Assembly: GCA_964443135.1 (NCBI GenBank)
Contig: CAYUBQ010000017.1
Coordinates: 726 to 64,725, forward strand
Length of the DNA: 64,000 nucleotides
Reading direction: 5' to 3'
From: an uncultured Desulfobacterales bacterium
Lineage (GTDB): Bacteria; Desulfobacterota; DSM-4660; Desulfatiglandales; HGW-15
A model generated the notes under the pieces. It searched no databases and was not told the origin of the DNA. It saw only the letters and a program-made list of their open reading frames with translations. The position numbers and the translations under genes were made by a program. Positions 1,826 to 63,534 of the stretch are shown here, in pieces (the stretch's first letter is position 1; the number at the start of each line of letters is the position of its first letter).

Positions 1826-2878
1826 ATGAAACGCCCCCCGATAGCGGTCCCTCGTGAGTGGAGCAGGATGCTGGCGTTCTGCCTGTTCCTGTTCCCTCTC
1901 ACGCTGTTTTCCTGTGCATCGCTCGCACCGAAGCAGGAACGAGAGTCCCCTCGCGCCGAACCCGCGGTGGAGCGCAGGATCTTCAGCTCGGACCGCTACC
2001 TGGTGTGTGTCCCGGGCGAAGAGACCACGGCCGAAGCGCTGGCTGCGGAGCACCTGGACGACCCCGGGGAGGCCTGGCTCGTCGAGGAGGCCAACGACGG
2101 GGCGTCCTTCGCCGCGAGCGACGCGATCGTGATTCCCCTTCGCGAAGAGAACCCCGGAGGGTTGACCGAGGACGGGTACCAGACCGTGCCGATCCTCTGT
2201 TATCACCGCTTCGGCAGGAAAAACAACGGCCCCTTGTGCGTCTCAGAGGAGACGTTCGCACGCCAGATGGCCTTCCTGGCGGAGAACGGCTACCATGCGA
2301 TCGGGATCGAGGAGCTCCTGGGCTTTCTGAACTACCGGCGGAGCCTGCCGGAGAAATCCGTTTTGATCACCATTGACGACGGTTACCGCTCGGCCTACGA
2401 GATCGCATATCCCATTCTTCGGAGGCACGGTTACACCGCCGCCCTGTTCGTGTACACCGACTTCATCGGGTCGAGCGTCAAGTCTCTGACATGGGAGCAG
2501 CTGGAGGAAATGAAGGCCGCGGGATTCGATGTGGGCTCCCACACCCTGACCCACTGCGACCTCTCGGAGAAGAGGGCGGGAGAGGACGACAGGTCCTACC
2601 GCGAGCGCGTGAGGCGGGAGCTTCTGGTGTCCAAGCGGATTCTCGACGAACGGCTGAACCAGGACACCATCGCCCTGGCCTACCCCTATGGGAACGCGTC
2701 CCCGGAGATCCTTCCGCTCTGCCACAGCCTGGGCTACCGTCTGGGTGTGACCGTCCGGCCGGGCGCCAACCCCTTTTTCGCCGATCCCCTGGCCTTGCGC
2801 CGCGAGCAGATCGTGGGGGACCAGGGTCACGACTTCCGAGATCGGCTGAAGCATTTCGAACCCGCTTCGCTTCAGTAG
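1826..2878 (+). CDS. Polysaccharide deacetylase family lipoprotein (NodB homology, PgaB-like)
   Basis: ATG at 1826 is preceded by GGAAGGAG. Lipobox LTLFSC. NodB-type motifs VLITIDDGYRSAYE and GSHTLTHCDL. Confidence 0.8.
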   Translation: MKRPPIAVPREWSRMLAFCLFLFPLTLFSCASLAPKQERESPRAEPAVERRIFSSDRYLVCVPGEETTAEALAAEHLDDPGEAWLVEEANDGASFAASDAIVIPLREENPGGLTEDGYQTVPILCYHRFGRKNNGPLCVSEETFARQMAFLAENGYHAIGIEELLGFLNYRRSLPEKSVLITIDDGYRSAYEIAYPILRRHGYTAALFVYTDFIGSSVKSLTWEQLEEMKAAGFDVGSHTLTHCDLSEKRAGEDDRSYRERVRRELLVSKRILDERLNQDTIALAYPYGNASPEILPLCHSLGYRLGVTVRPGANPFFADPLALRREQIVGDQGHDFRDRLKHFEPASLQ

Positions 2879-2885
2879 GGGATCC

Positions 2886-4103
2886 ATGAGAAGAAGCATC
2901 CTCATCGCAGCTCTCGCCCTCTTCCTGGGGCTCACCTGGTCGGGCTGTGTGACGCCGGGCGGGGAACCGGCGGCATCCGTGTCGGCCGTGAGCTCCGAGG
3001 GAGGGATCGCCGGGGAGTTTCTCTCCCGGGCGCGCGACCTGGAGAACCGGGGATTTCCGGTGCGCGCCCTGCGCCGGTACCGGATCGCTCTTACCGTCGA
3101 CCCGGAGAACCCGGAGGCCCTCGAGGCGGCCGGCCGGCTGGAGTCCCGCCTGGACGCGCGGGCCGACGAGCACTGCCGGGTCGGCCTGGCGTTTCACAAG
3201 GAGGGAAAGTACGCGCAGGCCCGGCACGAGTTCCTCACGGCGCTCCGGCTCGACCCGGATCACCCGACAGCCGCCGGGATGCTCGTCTCGCGGGAGCGGG
3301 TGCGGAGCACGCGTTACATCGTTCATCGGGTGGTTCCCGGGGAAAGCCTGTCCGCCCTGGCACAGCGCTACTACGGGGACTACCGCATGTTTCCGGAGAT
3401 CGCACGGTACAACCAGTTGAGGGATGCGACCCGGTTGACGGTGGGGCAGGAGCTCCGGATCCCGGAGATCGAAGGGGCCCCGTTTCTCACGGGCGAGGTC
3501 CCGGTGGAGACCGAGGAGAAGGCCCCGCCCGAGTACGGTCTCTGGGAGTGGGGAGCGTACGAGGCCGCGGCCGGCCGTGAGGCGGACGAGGTCGCCGGGG
3601 AGGCGGAGGAATCGGCCCGCATCACGTCCTGCCTGGCGCACGGGATCGCCCTGTTCGATCGCAGGAAGTACCGGCAGGCCGTCGTGGAGCTCGAACGGGT
3701 CCTCCATGCGAGGCCGGGCGACGAGACCGCCCGGGACTATGCGTCCAAGGCCCACTTCCGGCTGGCCGAGGATCTGTTCGAGAAACAACAGTTCCTCGCT
3801 GCACGCGAAGGATTCATGGAAGCGCTGCGCATCCGGGGGGACTGTGCCGAGTGCCACCGGTATGCCGAGAAGAGCGAGGATCTCTACAAGGAGTCCCACT
3901 ACCGCAGGGGCATGCAGTACTACAACCAGGAAAGGCTCAGAGAGGCCATGGGGGAGTGGGAGCGTGTCCGGGCCCTCGACCCGGGCTACAAGCGGGTGGA
4001 TTACCTCATTGAAAGGTCGAGGAAAATCCTTTCGAACCTCGAGGCCTTGAAAAGACACCAGGGAAAAAGCCCTGAGGAGGACGGCGGAAGCCGTCCCGAT
4101 TGA
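2886..4103 (+). CDS. TPR-repeat / LysM-domain lipoprotein
   Basis: Signal peptide plus lipobox LTWSGC. LysM-like YIVHRVVPGESLSALAQRYYGDYRMFPEIARYNQLRDATRLTVGQELRIP. TPR-like helical repeats. The stop codon TGA (4101-4103) lies inside repeat copy A. Confidence 0.8.
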   Translation: MRRSILIAALALFLGLTWSGCVTPGGEPAASVSAVSSEGGIAGEFLSRARDLENRGFPVRALRRYRIALTVDPENPEALEAAGRLESRLDARADEHCRVGLAFHKEGKYAQARHEFLTALRLDPDHPTAAGMLVSRERVRSTRYIVHRVVPGESLSALAQRYYGDYRMFPEIARYNQLRDATRLTVGQELRIPEIEGAPFLTGEVPVETEEKAPPEYGLWEWGAYEAAAGREADEVAGEAEESARITSCLAHGIALFDRRKYRQAVVELERVLHARPGDETARDYASKAHFRLAEDLFEKQQFLAAREGFMEALRIRGDCAECHRYAEKSEDLYKESHYRRGMQYYNQERLREAMGEWERVRALDPGYKRVDYLIERSRKILSNLEALKRHQGKSPEEDGGSRPD

Positions 4104-4201
4104 CGCATTCGCAGAAACCGCTCACGCGCCGCTGGAAGCGCTGGTACCCGTTGAAAACCCACGGGCAGATCTCGAGGCTTCGGGTTTTTTGCGACGTCAT
4201 C
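4098..4201 (+). repeat. Structured interspersed element, copy A (full length)
   Basis: GATTGACGCATTCGCAGAAACCGCTCACGCGCCGCTGG..GGGCAGATCTCGAGGCTTCGGGTTTTTTGCGACGTCATC. Imperfect terminal inverted repeat. Flanked by CCCGAT at 4095-4100 and 4201-4206. Confidence 0.85.
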
Positions 4202-4206
4202 CCGAT

Positions 4207-4887
4207 TCAGCGGCCTCGCAGCAGGACGTACACCGCCCCCGCTCCCCCGTCGTAGGGTCGGGCGGTGGCGAAGGCCAGGACGATCTTGCGCACGGAGCCG
4301 CTGCTGAACCAGACGGGAAGCTGCTCCTTCAGCACCGGAAAGCTCGAAGGCGAGTTCAGCCCCCGACCGTGGATGACGAGCACGCATCGCAGGCCGAGCC
4401 GGTGGCTTTCCCGAAGGAACTCCCGCACCCGGAGCCGGGCCTCGCTCTTCGTGAGCCCGTGAAGATCCACGTGGTCCTGGATCGGAAACCTCCCCTGCTT
4501 CAAGCGCCTCATCACCTTTCTTCCGACGCCCTTCACCGAGCCCTCCATGTACTCGTCCGTGAAGCTGATGTCCATCTCCACGGACCCGTGGACCAGCCGG
4601 CTGAGGTGCTCCAGGACCTCGCGGTCCTCGTCCGGGGCCGGGTGCGCCGGCCGGGGCGAGGCGGACGGGGATCTCGGTTTCCTCTTCCGCCCTCCGCGGA
4701 GGGGTTTCACGTCGGCCACGGCCTCGAGGAACGTTCTCGTCTGCTCCGAGACCGGGTCCGATTCCGGCGTCGATTCCGGCGCATCTCCGGCCGGGGCCGG
4801 TGACGGTTCTTCCGGGGGCGGTTCGACCTTCAGGTCCCGTCCCTCGAGCACGGGATTGAACACGTTCCTGCCTCTGGACTTTTTCAT
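4207..4887 (-). CDS. Smr (MutS2 C-terminal-like) domain protein
   Basis: C-terminal Smr signature VDLHGLTKSEA..CVLVIHGRGLNS. Start chosen at MKKSRGRN (4887); the longer ORF to 5028 would overlap the divergent gene's start. Confidence 0.75.
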   Translation of the reverse strand: MKKSRGRNVFNPVLEGRDLKVEPPPEEPSPAPAGDAPESTPESDPVSEQTRTFLEAVADVKPLRGGRKRKPRSPSASPRPAHPAPDEDREVLEHLSRLVHGSVEMDISFTDEYMEGSVKGVGRKVMRRLKQGRFPIQDHVDLHGLTKSEARLRVREFLRESHRLGLRCVLVIHGRGLNSPSSFPVLKEQLPVWFSSGSVRKIVLAFATARPYDGGAGAVYVLLRGR

Positions 4888-7193: not shown

Positions 7194-7297
7194 GATGGAG
7201 TCGAAAAAGCCACAAGCCTCGAGATCTGCCCCGGAACCGTCCGAGGGCGACACCGTTTCCAGCGGCGGGTGAGCGGGTCTTTGCGAATCCGTCAGAG
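7194..7297 (-). repeat. Structured interspersed element, copy B (full length)
   Basis: Minus-strand reading CTCTGACGGATTCGCAAAGACCCGCTCACCCGCCGCTGGAAACGG..GGGGCAGATCTCGAGGCTTGTGGCTTTTTCGACTCCATC. Flanked by GAGGAG at 7189-7194 and 7295-7300. Confidence 0.85.
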
Positions 7298-8235: not shown

Positions 8236-8255
8236 GACGCGAACCCCCCAAACTT

Positions 8256-8360
8256 GACGGCGTCGCAAAAAGCCCGAATCCTCCAGATCTGCCCCTGGGA
8301 TCTCAACGGGTGATATCGTCCCCAGCGGCGGATGAGCGGGCTTTTGCGAACCCGTCGATC
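8256..8360 (-). repeat. Structured interspersed element, copy C (full length)
   Basis: Minus-strand reading GATCGACGGGTTCGCAAAAGCCCGCTCATCCGCCGCTGGGGACGATATCACCCGTTGAGATCCCAGGGGCAGATCTGGAGGATTCGGGCTTTTTGCGACGCCGTC. Confidence 0.85.
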
Positions 8361-14514: not shown

Positions 14515-16149
14515 ATGCCTGACAGCCCCCGGGAAATCAAGGCCACCGTGGAGACCCTCCGGAAGCTGTTCATCATGCCGGACTCGCCGGACAAGTTCGT
14601 CGAGTTCGGGAACGAGCTCCTGGAGATGATCCACGACTTCTTCCGCGAGAAGGGGGGAATCCACAGCAGCGTCTCCCTGCCCGAGCTGAGCCGGATCTTC
14701 AGCCGGACCGCCGTTCCCGGCCACCCCATGCTCATCAAGGACGTCCTGGCGGAGATCAAGGACGAGGTCATCGCCCACTCCGTGAAGGTGGGGAACCCCT
14801 ACTACATCGGCCACATGATCAGTCCCGTGCCCTACTTCATGATCCTGCTCGAGATGATCATCGCCGCCCTCAACCAGAACCAGGTGAAGATCGAGACCGC
14901 CAAGGCCTCCAGCTTCGTGGAGCGGGAGCTCGTCACCTGGTTTCACCGGCTCGTGTTCGGCCGCACCGACCGCTTCTACGAGAAGAACGTGCAGAACCCC
15001 CGGGTGAGCCTGGGAAACGTGACCTCCGACGGGACCCTGGCCAACTTCACCGCCCTGGCCGTGGCCCGGGAAAAGGCCTTTCCGGCCGAGGGCGGCTTCG
15101 GCGGGGTCCGAAAGGAGGGCATGGCGCGGGCCCTCGCGCACCACCGGTGCCGCCGCGGCGTGATCCTGGTGTCGGCCCGCGGGCACTACTCCATCGCCAA
15201 GGCGGCCAACCTGCTGGGCCTGGGATCGGACAACGTGCTGAGCGTGCCCGTGGACCCGGACAACCGCATGGACCCGGCCAAGCTGAGACGCCGGGTGCGA
15301 TCCCTGGGAACGGACGAGCGGGTCGTCGCCGTCGTGGGGGTGGCCGGCACCACGGAGACCGGGAACATCGACGACCTGGAGGCGGTGGCGGAGATCGGGC
15401 GGGAGGCCGGAGCTCACGTGCACGTGGACGCCTGCTGGGGAGGAAGCGTGCTGCTCGTGGACGACTACCGGCCCCTCTTCCGGGGCGTCGAGCGGGCCGA
15501 CTCCGTGTCCATCGACGCCCACAAGCTCCTCTACTGCCCCATGGCCATGGGCATGGTCCTGTTCCGGAGCGAGCGGGACCTGAACCTCCTGAAGCACACC
15601 TCCAACTACATCATCCGCCGGAACTCCGTGGACACGGGGCGGTTCACGATCGAGGGCTCCCGCCCCTTCTCGGCGCTCAAGCCCTGGGCCTCCCTGAAGA
15701 TCCTCGGACGGCAGGGGTACCGGCTCCTGTTCGAGAGCGCCCGCAGGAACACGGAGACCCTCCGGGACCTCCTGGAGCGGGACGGAAACTTCGAGGTCAC
15801 CAACCGTCCGGAGCTCTTCATCCTGAACTACCGGTTCGTGCCCGGGACGGTGCAGGCGTTCCTGCCCGGGGCGGAGGCCGACACCCGGAAGGTCAACCGC
15901 CTGGTGAACGCCCTCAACGTCAAGCTCCACAAGGCGCTTCGAAGGGACGACACCACGTTCGTCTCCCGCACCACGCTGGAGTCCACGCGGTACCGGCCCC
16001 AGCGGATCGTGGTCCTGCGGGCCGTTCTCTCCAACCCCTTGACCGACCGGGGCGTGCTCGAGGAGATCGTCAGGACCCAGGCCCGGATCGGGCTCGAGAT
16101 CTGGCGGGAGTTCGAGCCCGCCTTCCGCAGAACTGTAATGGCGTCGTAA
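14515..16149 (+). CDS. Group II PLP-dependent decarboxylase
   Basis: 544 aa. PLP-lysine motif SIDAHKLLYCPMAMGMVLF and GNVTSDGTLANFTAL. The stop codon TAA (16147-16149) lies inside repeat copy D. Confidence 0.85.
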   Translation: MPDSPREIKATVETLRKLFIMPDSPDKFVEFGNELLEMIHDFFREKGGIHSSVSLPELSRIFSRTAVPGHPMLIKDVLAEIKDEVIAHSVKVGNPYYIGHMISPVPYFMILLEMIIAALNQNQVKIETAKASSFVERELVTWFHRLVFGRTDRFYEKNVQNPRVSLGNVTSDGTLANFTALAVAREKAFPAEGGFGGVRKEGMARALAHHRCRRGVILVSARGHYSIAKAANLLGLGSDNVLSVPVDPDNRMDPAKLRRRVRSLGTDERVVAVVGVAGTTETGNIDDLEAVAEIGREAGAHVHVDACWGGSVLLVDDYRPLFRGVERADSVSIDAHKLLYCPMAMGMVLFRSERDLNLLKHTSNYIIRRNSVDTGRFTIEGSRPFSALKPWASLKILGRQGYRLLFESARRNTETLRDLLERDGNFEVTNRPELFILNYRFVPGTVQAFLPGAEADTRKVNRLVNALNVKLHKALRRDDTTFVSRTTLESTRYRPQRIVVLRAVLSNPLTDRGVLEEIVRTQARIGLEIWREFEPAFRRTVMAS

Positions 16150-16240
16150 AAAGCCCCGAGCCTCGGGATCCGCCCCTGGGATTTCAACAGGTGATACCGC
16201 TGCCGGCGGCGCGTGAGCGGGTTCTGCGAATGCGTCAACC
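16137..16240 (-). repeat. Structured interspersed element, copy D (full length)
   Basis: Minus-strand reading GGTTGACGCATTCGCAGAACCCGCTCACGCGCCGCCGGCAGCGGTATCACCTGTTGAAATCCCAGGGGCGGATCCCGAGGCTCGGGGCTTTTTACGACGCCATT. Sits between convergent genes. Confidence 0.85.
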
Positions 16241-16251
16241 GCGGGGAGAGG

Positions 16252-17163: not shown

Positions 17164-17211
17164 GATTGCGCTGCCGGTGGCGCGTGAGCGGCTTCTTTCG
17201 AATGCCTCAAA
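17164..17211 (-). repeat. Structured interspersed element, 5'-arm fragment (copy H)
   Basis: Minus-strand reading TTTTGAGGCATTCGAAAGAAGCCGCTCACGCGCCACCGGCAGCGCAATC matches the first ~48 nt of copy D and then diverges. Confidence 0.6.
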
Positions 17212-17253: not shown

Positions 17254-18537
17254 GTGAATAGTGACAACTTGAAATACGTCCTTCGCCAGTTCGCCGAGCG
17301 AAGCCTCCCCCCATGCCGTCCCCGGACTCTGGTGCTGCCCGTTGATACGGGCAAGGTGATCGGCCTGGCCGGGGTTCGGCGTTCGGGGAAGACCTTTCTC
17401 TTTTTCGATACCATCCGGCGACTGGAAGAGCAGGGCGTGGACCGACGCTCTGTGGTGTACCTCAATTTCGAGGACGACAGACTGCACCCGCTTCGCTCCG
17501 AGGAGCTGGACCTGATCCTTCGTTGTCTCGAGGAGCTGTTTCCAGAGGTGATGGGCCGGCGTGTCTACCTGTTTCTCGACGAGGTGCAGAATGTGCCGGG
17601 CTGGGAGCGCTGGGTTCGGCGGATCCACGACACCGAGGATGCCGCCGTTTTTGTGACCGGTTCTTCTTCGAAGATGCTCTTTCGGGACTTGGCCACGGCA
17701 CTTCGGGGGCGGAGCATCACCTTCGAGGTGTTTCCCCTCAGCTTCCGCGAGTCCCTGGACTTTCGAGGCATCGAAACCGTGCCATACAGTGCGGAGAACG
17801 AAAGCCTGCTGCGCCGGGCCCTGGAGGAGTACCTCGCATGGGGAGGGTTTCCCGAGATCGTGCTGGCCGAGGAGACCCTGCGCCCGCACATCCTCACGGA
17901 ATATGCCTCTCTCATGTTCTACCGGGACGTGGTGGAGCGGTATGGAGTGCGCAATGAGCCACTCATGCGCGGGCTCCTCAGGCATGCCTTCCGCAACACC
18001 GCCACCCTGATCAATGTGAGCAAGCTCCACCGTGATTTTCGTTCTCAGGGGTTCAGCATCTCCAAAAACACGCTGTTCGAGTACCTCGGGTACCTGGAGG
18101 ATGCCTTTCTCGTTTTTCCCATTCCCCGGCTCGCACAGTCACTGCGCAAGCAGGCCCACAACCCGAAGAAGCTGCATGTCATCGACCCGGGCTTGGTGTC
18201 CGCATTCAAGGCGCGCACGGGGCCGGATTCCGGACGGCGGCTCGAAACGGCCGTGTTCCTGGAGATGCGCCGTGCTCACAAGGAGCTTTTCTATCATGCC
18301 GATGGAGGCGAGATTGACCTCTGCGACGGGGAAGGCACGGTGTTCGTCAATGTCTGCTGGAGCCTGGCCGAACTCGAGACCCGGCAGAGAGAGGCCAGGC
18401 AGATGGCCCTGGGACGAAGCCTGTGGCCCCAGGCCGATGGACGCCTGGTGTTTCACGAATATGCCCCCGAGCCCCCGGATCACGGCATCCCGGGCGCCCA
18501 GCCGGCATGGCGGTTCCTGACCACTGACCCCCTTTGA
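17254..18537 (+). CDS. COG1373-type AAA ATPase with DUF4143-like C-terminal domain (paralog 1)
   Basis: GTG start. Walker A GVRRSGKT, Walker B LFLDEVQ. In the C-terminal region the EID..VNVC segment aligns with the EVD..EIK of paralog 2. Confidence 0.8.
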   Translation: MNSDNLKYVLRQFAERSLPPCRPRTLVLPVDTGKVIGLAGVRRSGKTFLFFDTIRRLEEQGVDRRSVVYLNFEDDRLHPLRSEELDLILRCLEELFPEVMGRRVYLFLDEVQNVPGWERWVRRIHDTEDAAVFVTGSSSKMLFRDLATALRGRSITFEVFPLSFRESLDFRGIETVPYSAENESLLRRALEEYLAWGGFPEIVLAEETLRPHILTEYASLMFYRDVVERYGVRNEPLMRGLLRHAFRNTATLINVSKLHRDFRSQGFSISKNTLFEYLGYLEDAFLVFPIPRLAQSLRKQAHNPKKLHVIDPGLVSAFKARTGPDSGRRLETAVFLEMRRAHKELFYHADGGEIDLCDGEGTVFVNVCWSLAELETRQREARQMALGRSLWPQADGRLVFHEYAPEPPDHGIPGAQPAWRFLTTDPL

Positions 18538-25666: not shown

Positions 25667-25722
25667 GATGGAGTCGTAAATAGCCTGAATCCTGTGAGCG
25701 GGTTTTTGCGAATGCGTCAATG
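25667..25722 (-). repeat. Structured interspersed element, 56-nt internally deleted mini copy
   Basis: Minus-strand reading CATTGACGCATTCGCAAAAACCCGCTCAC|AGGATTCAGGCTATTTACGACTCCATC. Both arms are retained and the central ~48 nt are absent. Confidence 0.7.
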
Positions 25723-29787: not shown

Positions 29788-29892
29788 AGTTGACGCATTC
29801 GAAAAAACCCGCTCACGCGCCGCTGGGGACGATACAATCTGTTGGAATCTCAGGGGCAGATCTCGAGGCTTGGGGCTTTTGGGGACGCTATC
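29788..29892 (+). repeat. Structured interspersed element, copy E (full length)
   Basis: AGTTGACGCATTCGAAAAAACCCGCTCACGCGCCGCTGGGGACGATACAATCTGTTGGAATCTCAGGGGCAGATCTCGAGGCTTGGGGCTTTTGGGGACGCTATC. Confidence 0.85.
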
Positions 29893-29955
29893 AAAATATG
29901 ATTTGACAAAATGACCTGGTCTGGTCAGACTAAATGGATCAAGGAGGGTTGTTTT

Positions 29956-30201: not shown

Positions 30202-30575
30202 ATCTCTTCATTGACACCCACGTGCTGTTATGGTGGCTTGATGACAGCCCGAAGCTCTCCGAAGCCGGGCGAACCGCCATTTCAGATCCAGGCAATCTGA
30301 TCGTCTTGAGTGCCGTCGTGGTTTGGGAGATCCGGATCAAGCAGGCCCTGGGGAAGCTGGAAATCCCTCCGAGTTTTTACCGGGTGGTACAAGAACAGGG
30401 ATTTGAACTGTTATCGATAACGGGGGATCACGCATACGCTGTGGGTGACCTTCCCATGCACCACCGGGACCCCTTTGACAGAATGATCATTGCCCAGGCC
30501 AAACTCGAAGGCCTTACGGTGGCGACCCGCGACACTGTCTTCAACCAATACGACATCCCGGTTCTCAGGGTCTGA
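30198..30575 (+). CDS. vapC: PIN-domain toxin
   Basis: LFIDTHVLLWW, LSAVVVWEIRIK, HRDPFDRMIIAQA. Confidence 0.85.
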   Translation: MNLFIDTHVLLWWLDDSPKLSEAGRTAISDPGNLIVLSAVVVWEIRIKQALGKLEIPPSFYRVVQEQGFELLSITGDHAYAVGDLPMHHRDPFDRMIIAQAKLEGLTVATRDTVFNQYDIPVLRV

Positions 30576-30576
30576 C

Positions 30577-30594
30577 AACCCGCTCACGCGCCGC
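30577..30594 (+). repeat. 18-nt fragment of the structured element (copy I)
   Basis: AACCCGCTCACGCGCCGC is identical to 29806-29823 of copy E. It starts 2 nt after the vapC stop codon. Confidence 0.5.
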
Positions 30595-30618
30595 CATCAG
30601 GCTCCGTCCCGAGAACCG

Positions 30619-33516: not shown

Positions 33517-33590
33517 ATCCGGCTCCTCGTTTCGATGGGGTTCGACCGCCCCGGCCTCGCCGGGGTCGGCTGCATACGGCCTTGAAACCT

Positions 33591-33695
33591 GATGGGGTCG
33601 CAAAACGCCCTTGGCCTCGAGATCTGCCCTCGGAATATCGATAGATGATACCGTTTCCAGCGGCGGGTGAGCGGGTTTTTGCGAATCCGCCAAAC
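33591..33695 (-). repeat. Structured interspersed element, copy F (full length)
   Basis: Minus-strand reading GTTTGGCGGATTCGCAAAAACCCGCTCACCCGCCGCTGGAAACGGTATCATCTATCGATATTCCGAGGGCAGATCTCGAGGCCAAGGGCGTTTTGCGACCCCATC. Flanks are AACCTG and AACCTA. Confidence 0.85.
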
Positions 33696-55734: not shown

Positions 55735-56745
55735 ATGAAGATCACGGATTCGCAGGTGGCGATGACGGCCGCCTGGAGCAAGACCGAAACGCTCGAGGAG
55801 AAGGAGTCGCTTCAGATCCTTGTGAGACCGCCCGCACGGCAGGGGGATCGCGTGGAGATCTCGCAGGAACCACGACTCGAGCCCGGGTACAAGCTCGGGA
55901 AGCGGACTCGAGGCTTTCATGGAGAGATGCGCCACACGCTCAAGGCCTTGATCGTGGAGATGCTCACGGGGCGCAGGGTCGAGACCGTGGACCCTTCCTC
56001 TCTGGAAGGGTGCCCGGGGGAGGGGGCCTCTGAAGCCCCTGCCGGGGAGGCCTCTCAGACGAAACCCCGGGAAGGATCCGGCTGGGGCCTGGTCTACGAG
56101 CAGTCCCGGACCTACACCGAGCAACAGGAGGTCGCCGTGGCCGGTGCGGGCTTGGTGCGGACGGCCGACGGCCGGGAGATCGCGTTTCAGGTGGAATTGA
56201 GCATGAGCCGGGAGTTCGTGGAGCATCACCGTCTGACGGTTCGGGCCGGGGATCCGGCCCTGACCGATCCGTTGGTGTTGAACTTCGGCGGGAAGGCGGC
56301 GGAGCTCTCGGACGTCCGGTTCGCCTTCGACCTGGACGGCGACGGGACCGATGACGACATGCCCGGCCTGGCCCCGGGGAGCGGGTACCTGGCCCTGGAC
56401 CGGGACGGGAACGGCGAGATCGACGACGGGAGCGAGCTTTTCGGGCCGGAGACGGGGAGCGGGTTTCAGGAGCTCGCCGCGCACGACGAGGACGGAAACG
56501 GCTGGATCGACGAGGGGGACGGGATCTTCGAGCGGCTCAGCCTGTGGGAGGTGGACGCGCAGGGCGAGCGGTTGAGCTCCCTCTCGGATCGGGGCGTGGG
56601 GGCGATCTTTCTGGGCAGCCTGGACGCGCCCTTTGACCTCAAGGACGAGGAAAACGCGTTGGAGGGCCGCATTGCCCGGCACGGGCTGTTCCTGGGGGAG
56701 GACGGCAGCGCGGGTTCGGTGCAGGAGCTGGACCTGAAGGTGTGA
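55735..56745 (+). CDS. Hypothetical protein with three EF-hand-like Asp/Gly loops
   Basis: DLDGDGTDDD, DRDGNGEIDDGSELFG, DEDGNGWIDEGD. N-terminus MKITDSQ. Confidence 0.6.
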   Translation: MKITDSQVAMTAAWSKTETLEEKESLQILVRPPARQGDRVEISQEPRLEPGYKLGKRTRGFHGEMRHTLKALIVEMLTGRRVETVDPSSLEGCPGEGASEAPAGEASQTKPREGSGWGLVYEQSRTYTEQQEVAVAGAGLVRTADGREIAFQVELSMSREFVEHHRLTVRAGDPALTDPLVLNFGGKAAELSDVRFAFDLDGDGTDDDMPGLAPGSGYLALDRDGNGEIDDGSELFGPETGSGFQELAAHDEDGNGWIDEGDGIFERLSLWEVDAQGERLSSLSDRGVGAIFLGSLDAPFDLKDEENALEGRIARHGLFLGEDGSAGSVQELDLKV

Positions 56746-56819
56746 GGGGGAGACGGCCTCAGGCGTGGACTTCCCCAAGGACCTGATCAATGGCCAATCA
56801 GCCTGAGGTTTGCCTGCCC

Positions 56820-57531: not shown

Positions 57532-57612
57532 GGAATCCTGCACCACGATGTGGAAGACCTCCGGGGCTTCGCCCGGGAGATCCTGGATCGTCTCCCCCAC
57601 ATCGCTTCTCGA
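57532..57612 (+). pseudogene. 3' remnant of a DUF86/HEPN toxin gene
   Basis: Near-identical to 63454-63534 (..ILHHDVEDLRGFAREILDRLPHIAS). The stop codon is mutated (TGA to CGA). Confidence 0.65.
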
Positions 57613-57615
57613 GCG

Positions 57616-58416
57616 CTATCTTTTTCGAGGAATGCGCAAGGCCGTCCTCGAGCTCTCGCGCCACGGCGGCAGGCTGATGCCGAAGGACCTGTGGATTCGT
57701 GCACAGCTCAGGACCGAGTAGGGGGGCCGTGCGGCCGGGGTGGGGTAGTCCTCGGTGGAAATGGGGTGAACGTTTTGAACCCGCAGGGCCAGAGCCTGCG
57801 GGGCCAGCTCGAAGATGCCTTCGGCAAAGCCGTACCAGGTGGTTTGCCCCTGATTGGAGCAGTGATAGGTCCCCCAAGGGGAGGGGGTTCGGGGCAGGGC
57901 CTCTGCGATTTGGAGGATCGCCCGGGCGAGGTCTCTTGCCCAAGTGGGGCAGCCCACCTGGTCGTTCACCACGGAGAGGGTGTCGCGCTCCCGCCCCAGG
58001 CGGAGCATGGTGGTGAGGAAGTTGCGGCCGTAGGCGTTCAGGGGGGAGACCGGGTCCTCTTCTCGGTAGGGCCGCGTGCCCCGGCCGTCGAACACGTAGT
58101 CCGTGGAGACGTGGATCAGGGGAACGTTCGCTTGTGAGCAGGCCGCGGCCAGGTTCTCGGCGCCGTCCCGGTTCACGGCAAAGGCGAGGCCGGGTTCGGA
58201 CTCGGCCCGGTCCACGTCGGTGTAGGCCGCTGCGTTGACGAGGATGTCGGGTTTTTGACGGGTGAGGGCCTGCCGGACCGCCTCGGGGTCGGTGATGTCC
58301 AGGTCGGTCCGGGTGAGGGGGAGGACGGTCACGTCCGAGCCGGGACGGGATCCGGCCTCTTGGATCTCCCTTCCCAGCTGCCCGCCCGCCCCGGTCAGGA
58401 GGAGGCGCAGGGTCAT
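57616..58416 (-). pseudogene. rfbD: dTDP-4-dehydrorhamnose reductase with in-frame internal deletion
   Basis: N-terminus LLLTGAGGQLG. The sequence reads ..PLNAYG|RNFLTTML.., whereas copy 2 reads ..ILRTSWLYATHGRNFLTTML. About 30 residues are missing, including the Lys of the YxxxK motif. Confidence 0.65.
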
Positions 58417-58790
58417 GGCGTCTTTTCCGCGTACACGGGCAGTTGATCCGCGGGAACGTCCCTCAGCCGGGGGAGGTCCCGGTCCTTGGGGGAGAGGAGC
58501 GGGTCGTCCACGGGCCAGTCGATGCCGAGGTCCGGATCGGACCAGAGGATGCCCGCGTCGCAGTCGGGCGCGTAGACGTCGCTGCACTTGTAGAGCACCA
58601 GCGCCTCCTCGGTCAGGGCGCAGAACCCGTGGGCGAACCCCTCGGGGACAAAGAGCTGGCAAGGGTCTTGGGCGGAGAGCCGCATCCCGAACCAGCGGCG
58701 GAAGGTGGGGGAGCCCAGCCGGATGTCCACGCAGACGTCGAAGACCTCTCCCTGAATCGCCTGGATCAGCTTGGCCTGGGGGCTCAGCCC
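58413..58790 (-). pseudogene. rfbC: dTDP-4-dehydrorhamnose 3,5-epimerase lacking ~65 N-terminal codons
   Basis: The frame is open only from 58790 ([30 protein letters not shown]..). The first canonical start is a GTG at 58730. The fragment abuts the rfbA stop codon. Confidence 0.7.
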
Positions 58791-59671
58791 TCATCCGGCG
58801 GACCTCCGTCTCTCAGAAGGCCCAGCAGGTAGCGGCCGTAGTCGTTTTTCTCCAGGGGCCGGGCGAGCCGCTCCACCTGCTCATCGTCGATGTACCCCAT
58901 GCGCCAGGCGATCTCCTCCACGCAGGCCACGCGCAGGCCCTGGCGCTCCTGGATGACCTGGATGAAGTGGGCCGCCTGGAGGAGGCTCTCGTGGGTGCCC
59001 GTGTCCAGCCAGGCGATGCCCCGGCCGAGCTTCTCCACGGCCAGCTCCCCGCGCTCCAGGTAGGCGCGGTTGACGTCCGTGATCTCCAGCTCCCCCCGGG
59101 GGGAGGGCTCGAGCCCGGCCGCGATCTCCAGCACCCGGTTGTCGTAGAAGTAGAGGCCGGTGACGGCCCAGTTGGAGGGGGCCTTTTGGGGCTTCTCCTA
59201 AATGCCCACGGGCCGGTCCTTCGGGTCGAAGGCCACCACGCCGTAGCGCTCGGGGTCGCGCACCCAGTAGCCGAAGACCGTGGCGCCGGTGGTCCTTCGG
59301 GCCGCCCGGTTCAGGAACCCGGGCAGGCCGTGGCCGAAGAAGATGTTGTCCCCGAGGATCATGCAGACCCGGTCCTCCCCCACGAAGTCCCGGCCGATGA
59401 GGAAGGCCTGGGCCAGCCCCTCGGGCCGGGGCTGCTCGGCGTAGGCGAACCGGAGGCCCCACTGGGAGCCGTCCTGGAGCAGGTCCTGGAACCGGGGGAG
59501 GTCCACCGGGGTGGAGATCACCAGGATCTCCCGGATGCCCGCCAGCATGAGGACGCTGAGCGGGTAGTAGATCATGGGCTTGTCGTAGACCGGGAGCATC
59601 TGCTTGCTCACCCCCTGGGTGATGGGGTAGAGCCGGGTGCCCGATCCGCCGGCCAGGATGATGCCTTTCAC
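58784..59671 (-). pseudogene. rfbA: Glucose-1-phosphate thymidylyltransferase interrupted by an in-frame TAG
   Basis: GTG start at 59671 ([18 protein letters not shown]). TAG at 59198-59200 falls within ..[26 protein letters not shown].. The same frame continues to 58784. Confidence 0.75.
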
Positions 59672-59769
59672 GGGTTCTTCCTCTTTTCCACCATTGCTTC
59701 GTTCGATTCTATCCTGTCGTCGCGAGTACCATAGCAAGCATCGACATCGAGGACCACAGCTGCCGCTGA

Positions 59770-60174
59770 TCAGGAAACGGGTAGCCGCGGTGCAGGCCGA
59801 ACATCGGTCTTGGAGAAATCGTCGCCTTTGAACAGGAGCGGTTCGCCGCTGTATACGGAAAGGGCGTACGCACAGCAATCGCCGATGTTCAGGGAGGCCG
59901 GGTGTCTGCCTTTGCCGTATTTTCTCCAGGCGGTCCTGGCCAGCTCATACTGGCGGAGGTCCATGGGCACAATATCAATGGTGGAGTGGTGGAGAAGAAG
60001 GTCGAGCTCACGTCCCCCAGGTTCGCCTTTCTTGGCCTCAATGACGATGCCGGCCTCGAGCGCGGAGAATGCGCTCAGGAGCCTCTTGGGGTCTGCGGCA
60101 ATGGTTCGAGCGAATGATTCTGCATCGGCTTCGCCGAGCAGAATGGCCATCAGCGCGGACGTGTCGATGACCAT
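59770..60174 (-). CDS. vapC: PIN-domain toxin
   Basis: [15 protein letters not shown] and [11 protein letters not shown]. Confidence 0.85.
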
Positions 60175-60428
60175 CAGGCGGGCGCTCCATCCCTGTCGTA
60201 GCCCAGGATGGTATCAGCGGAGCGGGGGTCGATGTCGGGGAGGTTCCGGCAGCGCAAGGAAATGGCCATGATCTCGTCGACAGTGTTTTGAGGGGTTCGC
60301 CGGCCGCGTAGGCGCTCCAGCCTTTCCTCCAGGGCATGTATCACGGCCTGTGTCAGGTTCTCGCCGCTTTCCTCGGCCACCTCCCTTGCCAGCTTCTCGG
60401 CTCGTTCATTTCGAATGCTGAGCGCCAT
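60174..60428 (-). CDS. vapB: VapB-type antitoxin
   Basis: MALSIRNERAEKLAREVAEESGENLTQAVIHALEERLER. Its stop codon abuts the vapC start. Confidence 0.8.
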   Translation of the reverse strand: MALSIRNERAEKLAREVAEESGENLTQAVIHALEERLERLRGRRTPQNTVDEIMAISLRCRNLPDIDPRSADTILGYDRDGAPA

Positions 60429-60555
60429 GGTTTTTCTCCAGAAATGTATTGAATATATCAAAAAATATAGAATACAGAAAGCTGTCCGTCAAGGGGAAAA
60501 ACTTCAAGAGTTGCAGGATGGACTGGACCGCCGGCAACCGGGAAAGGTGTTGTCG

Positions 60556-60915
60556 CTATGGAAGCGTCCAGGAGAGTCCCATGACCCAGCCGACACTCTC
60601 CACGATCTCCCGGGTCCTCCGGGGGGAGAGGGTGCCGATTTTCTCGAGCAGGCGGTTCTTGTCGATGACCATGACATGGGTTCCCCTTGCCAGACTGGGC
60701 CTGGGGAGGTTCGCTTCCCCTTTCTCGAGCAGGACGTTTCCGGGAAGCGCGGCATGATGGGTGCTTTTCGTCAGAGGAACCACCAGGACCGTGCGAAAGC
60801 GGCTTCGGTTGATGGCATTCCTCTGCACGACCACCATGGGTCGATTGTAGGCCGGCTCTGAGCCGGTATTTGCAGCAAGGCTTCCACAGAAGACGTCCCC
60901 CTGCTGGATCACCAT
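60556..60915 (-). CDS. mazF: MazF/PemK-family endoribonuclease toxin
   Basis: MVIQQGDVF..NRPMVVVQRNAINRSRFRTVLVVPLT..LPGNVLL..VMVIDKNRL. Confidence 0.85.
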   Translation of the reverse strand: MVIQQGDVFCGSLAANTGSEPAYNRPMVVVQRNAINRSRFRTVLVVPLTKSTHHAALPGNVLLEKGEANLPRPSLARGTHVMVIDKNRLLEKIGTLSPRRTREIVESVGWVMGLSWTLP

Positions 60916-61163
60916 GACTCCTCCGGCTCGCCCGCGATGCCCAGCATCTCCTCGGCCAGGTCCTGGTCGTAGGCCGCGGTGCCTGGATCCGAACACACCT
61001 CATTGAATTGTCGGGTGATTTCCTCTTCCTCGAGCCTCTCGATCTGTTGCGCCACGGCCTGGACGACAAAGCGGCTCCTGGAGATGCCCTGCTTTTTGGC
61101 CCATGCATCCAGCTTCTCGAGGCATGGAGGGGGGATGGTGATCGCAATTCGCTGTGCTGACAT
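60909..61163 (-). CDS. Ribbon-helix-helix (CopG-like) antitoxin
   Basis: RIAITIPPPCLEKLDAWAKKQGISRSRFVVQAV. Overlaps mazF by 7 nt. Confidence 0.8.
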   Translation of the reverse strand: MSAQRIAITIPPPCLEKLDAWAKKQGISRSRFVVQAVAQQIERLEEEEITRQFNEVCSDPGTAAYDQDLAEEMLGIAGEPEESW

Positions 61164-61290
61164 GAGACGCTCCTATGTCCATGATCAGTATGATCAATCG
61201 TAATCGGGTAGAATCTCCAAGTCAAGCAGGGGATCCTGATCGCAGGTTGGGGTTGACATCGCTCCAATTTTACCGTACAAATTTGGAGTC

Positions 61291-62487
61291 ATGTTCTCGA
61301 GGCAGATCCAGCCTGTTGCGACGAAGAGCTTTTTCCTGTTCGGCCCTCGGCAGACCGGGAAGAGCACCTATGTTCGTTCGTTGTTGTCCTCCGAGGACCT
61401 GTACATCGATCTGTTGCCCCAGCGGAGCTACCTGGACTATGTCCGAAATCCCGGTAGCGTGCGGGAAGAGATTCTGGCCCATCTGGATCGGCATCCCGGG
61501 GCGATGTGTGTCATTGACGAGATCCAAAAGATCCCCGCGCTTTTGGACGAGGTACACGAGCTGATCGAGTCGCGGGGGGCCAGGTTCATTCTCACCGGGT
61601 CCAGCGCCAGGAAGCTTCGCAGGGGCGCTGCCAACCTTCTGGCGGGGAGGGCCTATACCTATCGCCTCTTTCCCCTGACCTTGCTGGAGCTGGGAGAGCG
61701 TTTCGATCTGGACCGGGCCCTCCGGGTCGGGACCCTTCCCGTGTTGTGGGGGGATGACCGCGAGGACCCTGCCGAGTTCCTGCGATCGTATGCCGAGACC
61801 TACCTGAAGGAAGAGGTGGCGGCCGAGGGCCTGGTACGGGATATCGGCCCTTTTGCGCAGTTCCTCGACATGGCTGCCGCCAATGACGGGGAGACCGTCA
61901 ACTTCAGCAACATGGCCCGAGAGTGCTCGGTGTCCAGCAAGACGGTGCAGCAGTACTATCAGATCCTTGAGGACACCTTTCTGGCCGTGAAGCTCTCGGC
62001 ATGGAGGCGCAGTGCCCGAAGGCGTCTCGTTTCCAACCCCCGGTACTACCTCTTTGACCCCGGCGTGACCAATGCCCTTGCCCACACCCTGACAGACCGG
62101 ATGGGGGGAAGCCTTCTCGGCCGGCGCTTCGAGCAGTTCGTCATCGGCCAGCTGACGGCCGCCATCCATTACCAGCGGCTGGACTACACCCTGCACTACT
62201 GGCGCACGAACCACGGCGCGGAGGTGGATGTCCTGCTCTGCGCCGGGAACCGCATCGTCTGCGCGCTCGAAATCAAGGCCTCCCGGCGAATCGCCTCGGA
62301 GTCCCTGACGGGGCTCAAGAGCTTTCTGGAGGACAACCCTGAGGTTGCCGCCTATGTTCTCGGGATCCAGCAGAAAAGGCGTAAGCTGGCCAACGGTGTC
62401 ACCGTGATGGACTGGAAGGACTTCATTGCGGAGCATTTGGAATCCGAGGGAGGTGGTCTTCAGACTCGGAGTTCACGAAGGACCTGA
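61291..62487 (+). CDS. COG1373-type AAA ATPase with DUF4143-like C-terminal domain (paralog 2)
   Basis: Walker A GPRQTGKS, Walker B CVIDEIQ. C-terminus HYWRTNHGAEVDVLL..ALEIKAS (D..ExK-like). Promoter TTGACA-N17-TACAAA at ~61254. Confidence 0.85.
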   Translation: MFSRQIQPVATKSFFLFGPRQTGKSTYVRSLLSSEDLYIDLLPQRSYLDYVRNPGSVREEILAHLDRHPGAMCVIDEIQKIPALLDEVHELIESRGARFILTGSSARKLRRGAANLLAGRAYTYRLFPLTLLELGERFDLDRALRVGTLPVLWGDDREDPAEFLRSYAETYLKEEVAAEGLVRDIGPFAQFLDMAAANDGETVNFSNMARECSVSSKTVQQYYQILEDTFLAVKLSAWRRSARRRLVSNPRYYLFDPGVTNALAHTLTDRMGGSLLGRRFEQFVIGQLTAAIHYQRLDYTLHYWRTNHGAEVDVLLCAGNRIVCALEIKASRRIASESLTGLKSFLEDNPEVAAYVLGIQQKRRKLANGVTVMDWKDFIAEHLESEGGGLQTRSSRRT

Positions 62488-62580
62488 TCAATGGACTCGA
62501 CGAATGCATCGACCTCATATTGGAGCTCTGGCATCTGATTGGCGAGGCGGGAGCAGGACGTTTCCGGGAAGCGCGGCATG

Positions 62581-62615
62581 CGGCGCATGAGCGGGTTTTT
62601 GCGAATGCGTCAATC
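62581..62615 (-). repeat. Structured interspersed element, 5'-arm fragment (copy J)
   Basis: Minus-strand reading GATTGACGCATTCGCAAAAACCCGCTCATGCGCCG, joined directly to a 30-nt mazF-derived segment. Confidence 0.65.
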
Positions 62616-62690
62616 GTCTGGCTCGGAAGGCGTTTCCGTGTGGGAGGGGAATGTGGTATATTCTTTCACGTCGTGATCAGGAGGGCGATC

Positions 62691-63113
62691 TTGCTGTCTG
62701 AGGAGCAAAAAAGGAAGGCATCGAGGTTTCTTGAGGGCTTCGACGCCATTGCTTCGGCCTACCTTTTTGGGTCCACAAGCGTGGGATGCGCTCGAAGCGG
62801 CAGCGACATCGATATTGCCGTCCGTGTTCGGAACGGGGTTCCTTCGGAAGAGCGGTTCGAGATCAGGATGGCGTTGCTTTCCGACCTGGAGCCGCTGTTC
62901 GATGCCCCTGTGGACGTTCTGGTGATGAACGATGCCTCCCTGGCCATCCTCCACCAGGTCCTTTCCTACGGCGTTCCCCTTTTCATCCGAGACCCCGAGG
63001 AAGAGGAACAGTTCCGGGTGAATCGGCTCAAGGCGTTTTTCGATTTCCGTTACTACCTCGACAGGGATTTTGACGAAACGGAACGGTTCTTCAGGAAGGC
63101 GAGTCATGGTTGA
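62691..63113 (+). CDS. Minimal nucleotidyltransferase (MNT) antitoxin
   Basis: TTG start after AGGAGGG. AYLFGSTSVGCARSGSDIDIAV motif (GS..DxD). Confidence 0.8.
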   Translation: MLSEEQKRKASRFLEGFDAIASAYLFGSTSVGCARSGSDIDIAVRVRNGVPSEERFEIRMALLSDLEPLFDAPVDVLVMNDASLAILHQVLSYGVPLFIRDPEEEEQFRVNRLKAFFDFRYYLDRDFDETERFFRKASHG

Positions 63114-63534
63114 TGCGGATGTGATCCAATCCAAGCTGCGGTTCCTGCGCGAGTACCTCCAGGATCTGGACGAGTACCGGCAGATCACGACGGCGGATTA
63201 TATCAGACAGAAAAAGGATCAGCGTTTCATCGAGCGGACCCTCCATCTGGCCTGCGAGTGCTGCATCGACATCGCGGCACACGTGATATCCAGAAAAAAC
63301 CTTCGGCCCCCCAAGGACAACAAAGACCTTTTCCTCATTCTCTACGAGAACGGCCTCATTTCAGGATCCATGGAATCCGCAATGCGTAAGATGGTGCAGT
63401 TCAGAAACATCGTGGTTCACGACTATGCCCGCATCGATCCGGAGATCGTCGTAGGAATTCTGCACCACGATGTGGAAGACCTCCGGGGCTTCGCCCGGGA
63501 GATCCTGGATCGTCTCCCCCACATCGCTTCTTGA
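63106..63534 (+). CDS. HEPN/DUF86 toxin
   Basis: Rx4-6H motif FRNIVVHDY. Its ATG overlaps the MNT stop codon. Confidence 0.85.
   Translation: MVDADVIQSKLRFLREYLQDLDEYRQITTADYIRQKKDQRFIERTLHLACECCIDIAAHVISRKNLRPPKDNKDLFLILYENGLISGSMESAMRKMVQFRNIVVHDYARIDPEIVVGILHHDVEDLRGFAREILDRLPHIAS

Follow-up and report, generated by a model that had tools for sequence, protein, structure and literature searches.

A 30-nt direct repeat around an ATPase gene as probable debris of a decayed toxin-antitoxin module

When an accessory gene lies between two identical pieces of DNA, do the repeats record how the gene arrived? The question is raised by a locus near the end of a 64,000-nt stretch of DNA (the window; C17:726-64725) from the genome of an uncultured Desulfobacterales bacterium, here called G000, a metagenome-derived draft of 4.55 Mb in 184 contigs. 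At this locus, an ATPase gene stands between two identical 30-nt sequences (30-mers), one of which is part of a mazF toxin gene (site 1), while the other (site 2) adjoins a fragment of a dispersed repeat. A first-pass annotation of the window described an accessory cassette bounded by a duplicated piece of a neighboring gene. That description of the layout stands, but the repeats cannot be taken as a signature of arrival once the related genomes G003 and G006 are considered. We conclude that the 30-mer pair is neither a target-site duplication nor an att site, and that it did not arise by insertion of the ATPase gene. On the strength of sequence comparisons, the second 30-mer is probably a non-functional fossil of a second mazF copy, derived from a decayed RHH-mazF-MNT-HEPN module. 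If the fossil, a templated patch and other scar histories are taken together, the pair is very probably an inert recombination scar, and it has no demonstrated role. As a remnant of toxin-gene sequence in a heavily reshuffled toxin-antitoxin (TA) hot spot, the second 30-mer says nothing about how the ATPase gene came to be there.

An exact repeat with one copy in an intact mazF gene

Even with up to three mismatches allowed, the 30-mer GAGCAGGACGTTTCCGGGAAGCGCGGCATG matches the window at two places only, 60727-60756 and 62551-62580, both on the plus strand. The two are identical, as the first-pass annotation had reported. The whole assembly likewise contains two forward copies and no reverse copy, and none of 100 dinucleotide shuffles of the window yielded two matches. 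The copies are separated by 1824 nt from start to start, with 1794 nt of DNA intervening, and their flanks are mutually unrelated on both the left and the right, so that the borders of the repeat are sharp. The intervening DNA, which we could confirm by Pfam searches, holds the 5' part of mazF, an RHH gene and the gene for a 398-aa ATPase with AAA_14 and DUF4143 domains (COG1373; 61291-62487, plus strand; PF13173 and PF13635).

Site 1 lies within an intact mazF/PemK-type toxin gene (60556-60915, minus strand; a 360-nt open reading frame [ORF] of 119 aa; PF02452). When the longer ORF 60556-60996 is used as the query, the PemK_toxin profile PF02452 is matched at E 1.9e-19 across profile positions 2-105 of 109. 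Full-length orthologues of the gene are found in the metagenome contig L020 (97% aa identity), G006 (85%) and G008 (74%). The 30-mer corresponds to mazF nt 160-189 on the minus strand and encodes codons H54-L63, HAALPGNVLL, in agreement with the earlier translation. Upstream is an RHH (CopG-like) antitoxin gene (60909-61163, minus strand; Pfam RHH_5/RHH_1), whose stop codon overlaps the mazF start and for which a promoter scan places a promoter-like site at 61225-61197 on the minus strand. With a full-length profile match, an open frame and an upstream antitoxin gene, site 1 has the predicted makeup of a MazF/PemK gene.

Exact flanking repeats of at least 25 nt are rare in this genome, having been found around 8 of 1275 random 1.2-kb segments, a count that includes one run of Ns and two element copies. 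The 30-mer pair is therefore homologous sequence rather than a chance match. We considered whether the 30-mer might be an exceptionally conserved part of mazF and rejected this idea, as the most conserved 30-nt stretches in a four-gene mazF alignment fall at nt 110-149, not at nt 160-189. Because the 30-mer region is not unusually conserved within mazF (only 22 of 30 positions match in G008), the match is also not convergent.

The repeat might also be an error of the metagenome assembly, either a chimeric join or a segment that was collapsed or duplicated; the genome is a fragmented draft, and the neighborhood contains paralogous segments of 88-99.6% identity that are difficult to assemble. 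However, contigs from four sequencing runs in four studies cover parts of the locus. Logan contigs of run X1 match 59644-61083 and 61054-62609 exactly; X4, which belongs to another study, has contigs spanning 60434-60885 (5 differences) and 62209-62609 (10 differences); and a contig of X5 spans 60578-61412 (1 difference). X1 and X4 therefore include both 30-mer sites and X5 includes site 1. Read depth in X1 is flat, at ~27-45, over the listed contigs, whether copy-specific or shared. Two independent assemblies reproduce pieces of the structure, G003 for site 2 and L020 for the mazF-RHH-ATPase segment, and the 30-nt repeat is shorter than the 55-nt overlaps between contigs of this assembly. No Logan contig extends 31 nt past 62580, because the core of the adjoining element is a high-copy k-mer; accordingly, the link onward from the element fragment to the MNT gene beyond it rests on the genome's own assembly and on the independent assembly of G003. 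An assembly artefact is very unlikely, and the proviso in the first-pass annotation that the second 30-mer might be an assembly duplication is answered by the X1 and X4 contigs.

Site 2 and its counterparts in related genomes

At site 2, the 30-mer (62551-62580, minus strand; hereafter m) is either a mazF fossil or a templated patch, and it is identical in G003. The first-pass annotation held that the mazF frame continues beyond this copy and then decays. We find instead that the frame runs through 11 open codons unrelated to mazF (PPRQSDARAPI) before a stop. No mazF similarity is detectable beyond the 30-mer on either side, the best alignment covering 32 aa at 43.75% identity with E 1.3. Given this E value, site 2 is not a mazF member gene. 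What survives of mazF there is 10 codons.

Immediately to the left of m lies a second scrap, which we call h' (62460-62549, minus strand). These 90 nt encode SRLANQMPELQYEVDAFVESIDQVLRELRV and end in a stop codon. In its own genome, the 30-aa h' peptide finds its best non-self match in the C-terminus of a 156-aa HEPN ORF farther down the contig (E 0.27). A search of 61 family genomes gave as significant matches G000 itself, the equivalent scrap in G003 (E 7.2e-14) and an ORF in G007, where the match again falls on the C-terminus of a 156-aa ORF (61% identity, E 8.6e-7). Both 156-aa ORFs are recognized by the Pfam HEPN profile PF05168 (E 1.1e-11 in G007 and 4.9e-9 in the window's contig), and a nucleotidyltransferase gene, whole or in part, comes before each. 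As the peptide matches the C-termini of HEPN ORFs, we identify h' as a fossil of the 3' end of a HEPN toxin gene, comprising its last ~29 codons and stop. It is convergent with the ATPase gene, whose last ~12 codons overlap it, and the minus-strand order at site 2 is the element fragment (J), m, h' and then the 3' end of the convergent ATPase gene.

Two further observations concern h'. A 42-codon chimeric ORF at 62460-62588 (minus strand) begins in J, runs through the 30-mer in a frame other than that of mazF, and finishes as the HEPN C-terminus; its counterpart in G003 is also open, and the matched 30 residues are 97% identical. In addition, positions 56759-56793 and 62460-62494 form a 35-nt direct repeat with 83% identity and a 17-nt exact core. 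The former segment encodes a HEPN-type C-terminal end (…IDQVLGEVHA, stop) just after the ORF 55735-56745, a 336-aa frame with no Pfam match, and its sequence suggests that it is probably another HEPN 3' fossil.

On its other side, the 30-mer is fused directly to J (62580-62613, plus strand), as had been noticed earlier; similarity to the element begins at 62580, the last base of the 30-mer. J is the 3'-terminal 34 nt of a dispersed palindromic repeat of ~105 nt, of which the 5' ~70 nt are missing. The unit length and its inverted ends are apparent from an alignment of ten copies in the window, namely J and those at 4097-4213, 7204-7294, 8254-8357, 16125-16241, 17164-17209, 25674-25720, 29790-29894, 30556-30600 and 33583-33693. 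Pattern counting gives 215-218 element cores in the 4.55-Mb genome, and ~200 genome blast matches of the element all begin at 62580 or no more than 10 nt upstream of it. In each of four metagenome runs, 17-25 contigs diverge before 62580 into normal upstream element sequence. J is thus a 5'-truncated copy of the element. Its 5' end was also considered as a natural element boundary and rejected, since truncated copies break at differing positions. A crude threshold called 49 of 215 cores "solo"; by eye, most of these are diverged full copies and ~10 are truly truncated.

The element itself forms some tandem arrays with a ~107-nt period, many contig ends fall within it, and relatives within the genus have related copies as well. 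Among three full copies, one exceeds its shuffles by a wide margin in folding (z -4.5), and the other two do not. Four Y1_Tnp (PF01797) genes in the genome score above the cut-off. At gathering thresholds, Rfam returned no match anywhere in the window, and neither the element nor the junction is therefore a described RNA family. An integron or attC reading of the element was rejected, as its copies lie in both orientations and no integrase was found among 65 scanned window ORFs.

These scraps were placed by comparison with one metagenome contig and eight genomes of the genus; when G000 and 40 relatives were searched at the DNA level, 11 of the 41 genomes gave matches. With up to three mismatches allowed, G003 contains one 30-mer copy, at site 2 only, and G006 contains one, in mazF only, with none in G008, G002 or G004. 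The comparison with relatives, which the first-pass annotation had proposed as a check, finds just one copy in each of G003 and G006. The scan of metagenomes with a 24-nt part of the 30-mer recovered a single contig, L020, which includes site 1 and stops short of site 2.

G003, another species of the genus, matches the window from 60900 to position 65913, the end portion lying beyond the window in C17 (G003 C171:423-5434; 92.8% identity). Its gene order is RHH, ATPase, h', 30-mer (30/30), J, MNT, HepT and rfbD. The 30-mer occurs once in the G003 genome, at site 2, and there is no mazF beside RHH; ~10 nt of the mazF start remain, and an MNT-type gene follows directly. Identity between G000 and G003 is 98-99% in the four 100-nt bins of 62300-62699, within a range of 71-99% over all 51 bins. 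Because the site-2 junction is common to both genomes, the scar predates their split, and because G003 keeps the site-2 30-mer in the absence of a mazF copy, the scar does not depend on a partner.

The complete module can be seen in other relatives. In G006, whose ATPase gene is 87% identical at the DNA level, the end of contig C375 overlaps the reverse-complemented C430 by 55 nt, and the order across the two is ATPase (+), an 80-nt vapC scrap, HEPN (-), MNT (-), mazF (-), RHH (-) and rfbD-rfbC-rfbA (-). A complete RHH-mazF-MNT-HEPN module is thus convergent with the 3' end of the ATPase gene in that genome, and its mazF carries the sole G006 copy of the 30-mer (29/30). L020, a contig from a JGI metagenome, is 91.7% identical to the window and has HEPN-MNT-mazF-RHH followed by a divergent ATPase gene. 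In both the G007 and G006 loci, a Polbeta/NTP_transf_2 gene is directly followed by a HEPN gene matching PF05168, the arrangement expected of an MNT-HEPN pair. The ORF preceding the pair in G007 (C170 [L023] 2366-3082, minus strand) has motifs (…YIHLNPLRAG…) that suggest a putative REP-associated, IS200-like Y1 transposase.

In the window, the MNT-HEPN part of the mazF locus is represented only by scraps, h' at site 2 and a second one, n', at site 1. The n' scrap (60513-60548, minus strand) is a 35- to 36-nt fossil of an MNT-type antitoxin gene (MNT'), 94% identical to the MNT' gene of G003. In relatives, an MNT-type gene comes after mazF; in the window only the n' island borders the mazF stop. 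Aligned against L020, G006 and G003, this island is seen to lie between a deletion of ~150 nt and the vapB promoter region. Like m, n' is a short scrap between two junctions, and the two are of similar size.

Origins of the second 30-mer

The history we favor would begin in the ancestor of G000 and G003 with an RHH-mazF-MNT-HEPN module lying 3' of the ATPase gene and convergent with it, and with another copy located 5' of that gene. Illegitimate recombination would then have deleted nearly all of the 3'-side copy. What would remain on the minus strand is the truncated J, 30 nt from the middle of mazF and the last ~29 codons of HEPN, with native order and strand preserved, and the 5'-side copy would have retained intact RHH and mazF genes in G000. 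An intact mazF on the 5' side and a 30-nt fossil on the 3' side would account for the direct repeats 1.8 kb apart today. It is the position of m, which adjoins h' in module order and on the module strand, that makes it look like debris of a decayed module. From the anatomy of the site, the identities of its scraps, the intact module in relatives and the scar kept in a sister species that lacks the mazF copy, we infer that the module once resided at this exact spot, and we propose the order of deletions given above.

Several points weigh against this history. A fossil of this size requires two breakpoints only 30 nt apart inside mazF. The DNA directly 3' of the ATPase gene in G006 differs, comprising a vapC scrap and then HEPN, and the 3' flanks are not demonstrably orthologous. 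Neither the examined genomes nor the metagenome scan yielded an intermediate in which more of mazF is left at site 2. Finally, h' shares only ~40-45% of amino acids over the last 25-30 residues with the mazF-associated HEPN genes of G006 and of its own contig, a comparison made partly by eye. That m should match at 30 of 30 positions while h' has diverged fits a recent copy from the neighboring mazF at least equally well.

Such a copy is the substance of the main rival, which we regard as rather unlikely. A single deletion or replacement would have joined the HEPN 3' end to the truncated element, and 30 nt would have been copied from mazF, 1.8 kb away, as filler DNA in direct orientation through a microhomology-mediated template switch; the 30-mer would then never have been part of a gene resident at site 2. 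This explanation does better with the contrast between m, identical to the neighboring mazF, and h', strongly diverged from its nearest full-length homologues. The borders of m are sharp at both ends, with at most 1 nt in common at the J junction, and n', a similar island between two junctions, would suit serial template switching. The patch explanation does worse with source, strand and side. A patch could have come from any nearby source in either orientation, whereas mazF sequence, on the same strand and upstream of a HEPN scrap, is what a decayed module predicts. Furthermore, at the only junction with a known parent sequence the microhomology does not exceed 1 nt, the parental HEPN sequence for the other junction not being available.

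The exactness of the repeats, their sharp borders and their placement around a 1.8-kb segment with an accessory gene could also suggest insertion, with the 30-mers serving as a target-site duplication, an att core or the homology used in Campbell-type integration of a circle that carried the 5' part of mazF, RHH and the ATPase gene. The rarity of such flanking repeats in the genome speaks for this reading, and a single crossover within the 30-mer would formally reproduce the structure. We nevertheless consider it improbable. G003 has the ATPase gene and the site-2 junction without site 1, and G006 has the ATPase gene and mazF without site 2. The repeats do not bound the unit common to different genomes: blast similarity with G006 covers 61252-62451, well inside the 30-mer pair, and that with G003 begins at 60900 and excludes site 1. 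No integrase, transposase or terminal inverted repeats were found between or beside the repeats. Pfam searches of the ORFs in 59770-63534 detected no recombinase or transposase gene between the 30-mers, only PIN, Rv0623-like, PemK, RHH, AAA_14/DUF4143, nucleotidyltransferase and HepT domains, and no inverted repeat pair bounds the 30-mer unit. Target-site duplications are usually far shorter than 30 nt.

Other copies of the ATPase gene do not share the arrangement either. The genome has eight AAA_14/DUF4143 paralogues, with incomplete flanks for four of the eight. Among them, exact flanking repeats of at least 20 nt surround only the focal gene and one on C59, where four collinear matches lie 3734 nt apart and read, from their sequence, as a diverged duplicated segment. 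The suggestion that further ATPase copies might have comparable duplicated flanks was not borne out for any of the seven others, within the limits set by the four incomplete flanks. Element cores are found within 100 nt of two of the eight paralogues, with a third at 104 nt, as compared with 6% of random 1.2-kb segments, a weak difference that offers a weak hint that the cores mark recombination-prone borders of ATPase genes. In the window, the ATPase gene 17254-18537 has the core at 17164-17209 positioned 46 nt upstream of its start, and the gene C59:22124-23110 has one (C59:22020-22043) 81 nt upstream.

A functional alternative would treat the 30-mer as antisense. The ATPase transcript would read through it into a J hairpin, giving a 3' untranslated region (UTR) complementary to the mazF mRNA that dampens the toxin. 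The plus-strand 30-mer begins 64 nt past the ATPase stop, with no terminator-like site called between them; J by itself can form a small predicted hairpin; and 62300-62699 is the best-conserved part of the alignment between G000 and G003. However, G003 retains the 30-mer despite having no mazF target, the conserved block is 400 nt long and is not centered on the 30-mer, and the region 62551-62625 folds no better than shuffled sequence (z -0.13). We therefore find this explanation highly improbable. The same holds for its most far-reaching form, in which the scar would have been co-opted so that the 3' UTR of a candidate defense gene, through a perfect 30-nt mazF antisense, couples the gene's own expression to silencing of the toxin. 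In a weaker version, recombination between the 30-mers may offer a safe exit, removing the antitoxin gene and truncating the toxin gene together. The joint that such recombination would produce, from 60756 to 62581, does not appear among the 15 joints listed, of 38, in the metagenome contigs.

Decay in the neighborhood and comparison with known systems

The reading of m as debris of a decayed module places it among other remnants nearby. Downstream of J is an MNT-HepT toxin-antitoxin pair (MNT 62691-63113 and HepT 63106-63534, plus strand; Pfam Polbeta/NTP_transf_2 and HepT-like), the MNT member of which matches the PADLOC family PDC-S09. A degraded second copy of a HepT 3' end with rfbD-rfbC-rfbA is found at 57532-59685 (minus strand) and is paralogous to 63454-65882, which extends partly beyond the window. 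Blast segments between the two are 88.5%, 96.1% and 99.6% identical at offsets of 5922, 6012 and 6197, and the copy at 57532-59685 carries deletions of 90 nt in rfbD and 185 nt around rfbC/rfbA relative to the other. The copy that begins at 63454 runs on to C17:66607; the copies are 5.9-6.2 kb apart, their identity forms a gradient, and each has its rfbA frame broken into two ORFs.

A further stage of decay is seen at RHH2, a gene that runs from the end of C17 into C86 (L003:3073-3267 and L004:3-~150, respectively) and in which RHH is joined in frame to the final ~23 codons of MNT'. At this locus, mazF and the catalytic part of MNT have been deleted, and RHH2 is located upstream of the intact 156-aa HEPN gene (L003:2648-3118, minus strand). 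Judging from these frames, it would have to be the RHH-MNT' chimera, or nothing, that neutralizes the HEPN protein if the latter is still toxic. Taken together, n' and the RHH-MNT' fusion in the same locus indicate that piecemeal decay of the module is recurrent here.

The 30-mer pair is real, yet of a commonplace sort. It is best seen as a gene fossil in a toxin-antitoxin graveyard, and it opens no new mechanism and answers no long-standing question. It does carry a caution: an exact direct repeat around an accessory gene in a TA hot spot can be debris of a decayed paralogous module, and only comparison with relatives distinguishes such debris from a record of arrival. The locus also presents a compact and reconstructable decay series of a four-gene module nested in an rfb (dTDP-rhamnose) operon, with states that range from the intact module and the toxin-deleted in-frame fusion to a 35-nt scrap, a 30-nt scrap and a 3'-end scrap. 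Such a series could be of use in studying how cells survive the loss of their TA modules.

Several known systems resemble parts of the locus. The ATPase gene matches seven models of the PADLOC candidate defense family PDC-S01 (best E 2.9e-64), which comprises single-gene AAA_14-DUF4143 ATPases and from which a role in defense is predicted; this likeness belongs to the gene between the repeats and not to the 30-mer. DUF4143 (COG1373) is listed among members of the PD-(D/E)XK superfamily (PMC3424549). Site 1 resembles MazEF/PemIK loci in having a full-length putative PemK/MazF-family ORF after a small overlapping RHH gene, whereas site 2 offers just 10 codons with no start, stop or partner. The dispersed element may belong with repetitive extragenic palindromic (REP)/BIME-like repeats associated with Y1 (RAYT/IS200-type) transposases, having at least 215 copies of ~105 nt and inverted ends in a genome with four Y1_Tnp-family genes; J differs in being only a 34-nt end piece, and no Rfam family matches the window.

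Identical direct repeats on either side of an accessory-gene segment are also what target-site duplications and att cores present. Here, however, they come with no mobility gene and no terminal repeats, they do not match the unit common to different genomes, and relatives carry either copy independently. Templated insertions arise at rearrangement junctions through template switching of the fork stalling and template switching (FoSTeS) or microhomology-mediated break-induced replication (MMBIR) type. They share with m a short direct-orientation copy of nearby DNA placed exactly at a junction of unrelated sequences; m differs in that no assessable junction shows more than 1 nt of microhomology, and in that its source and orientation are also those expected of a decayed resident module.

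The closest comparison is with gene remnants left by the decay and reshuffling of type II TA loci in variable chromosomal regions. As in those, short non-coding TA pieces stand beside intact paralogues, with sharp junctions and several pieces per hot spot, represented here by m, h', n' and the RHH-MNT' fusion, and the pieces that survive vary among relatives. The present scrap departs from them in being just 30 nt long and yet 100% identical to the neighboring gene, and in forming a direct repeat around an accessory gene, so that it mimics the signature of an insertion.

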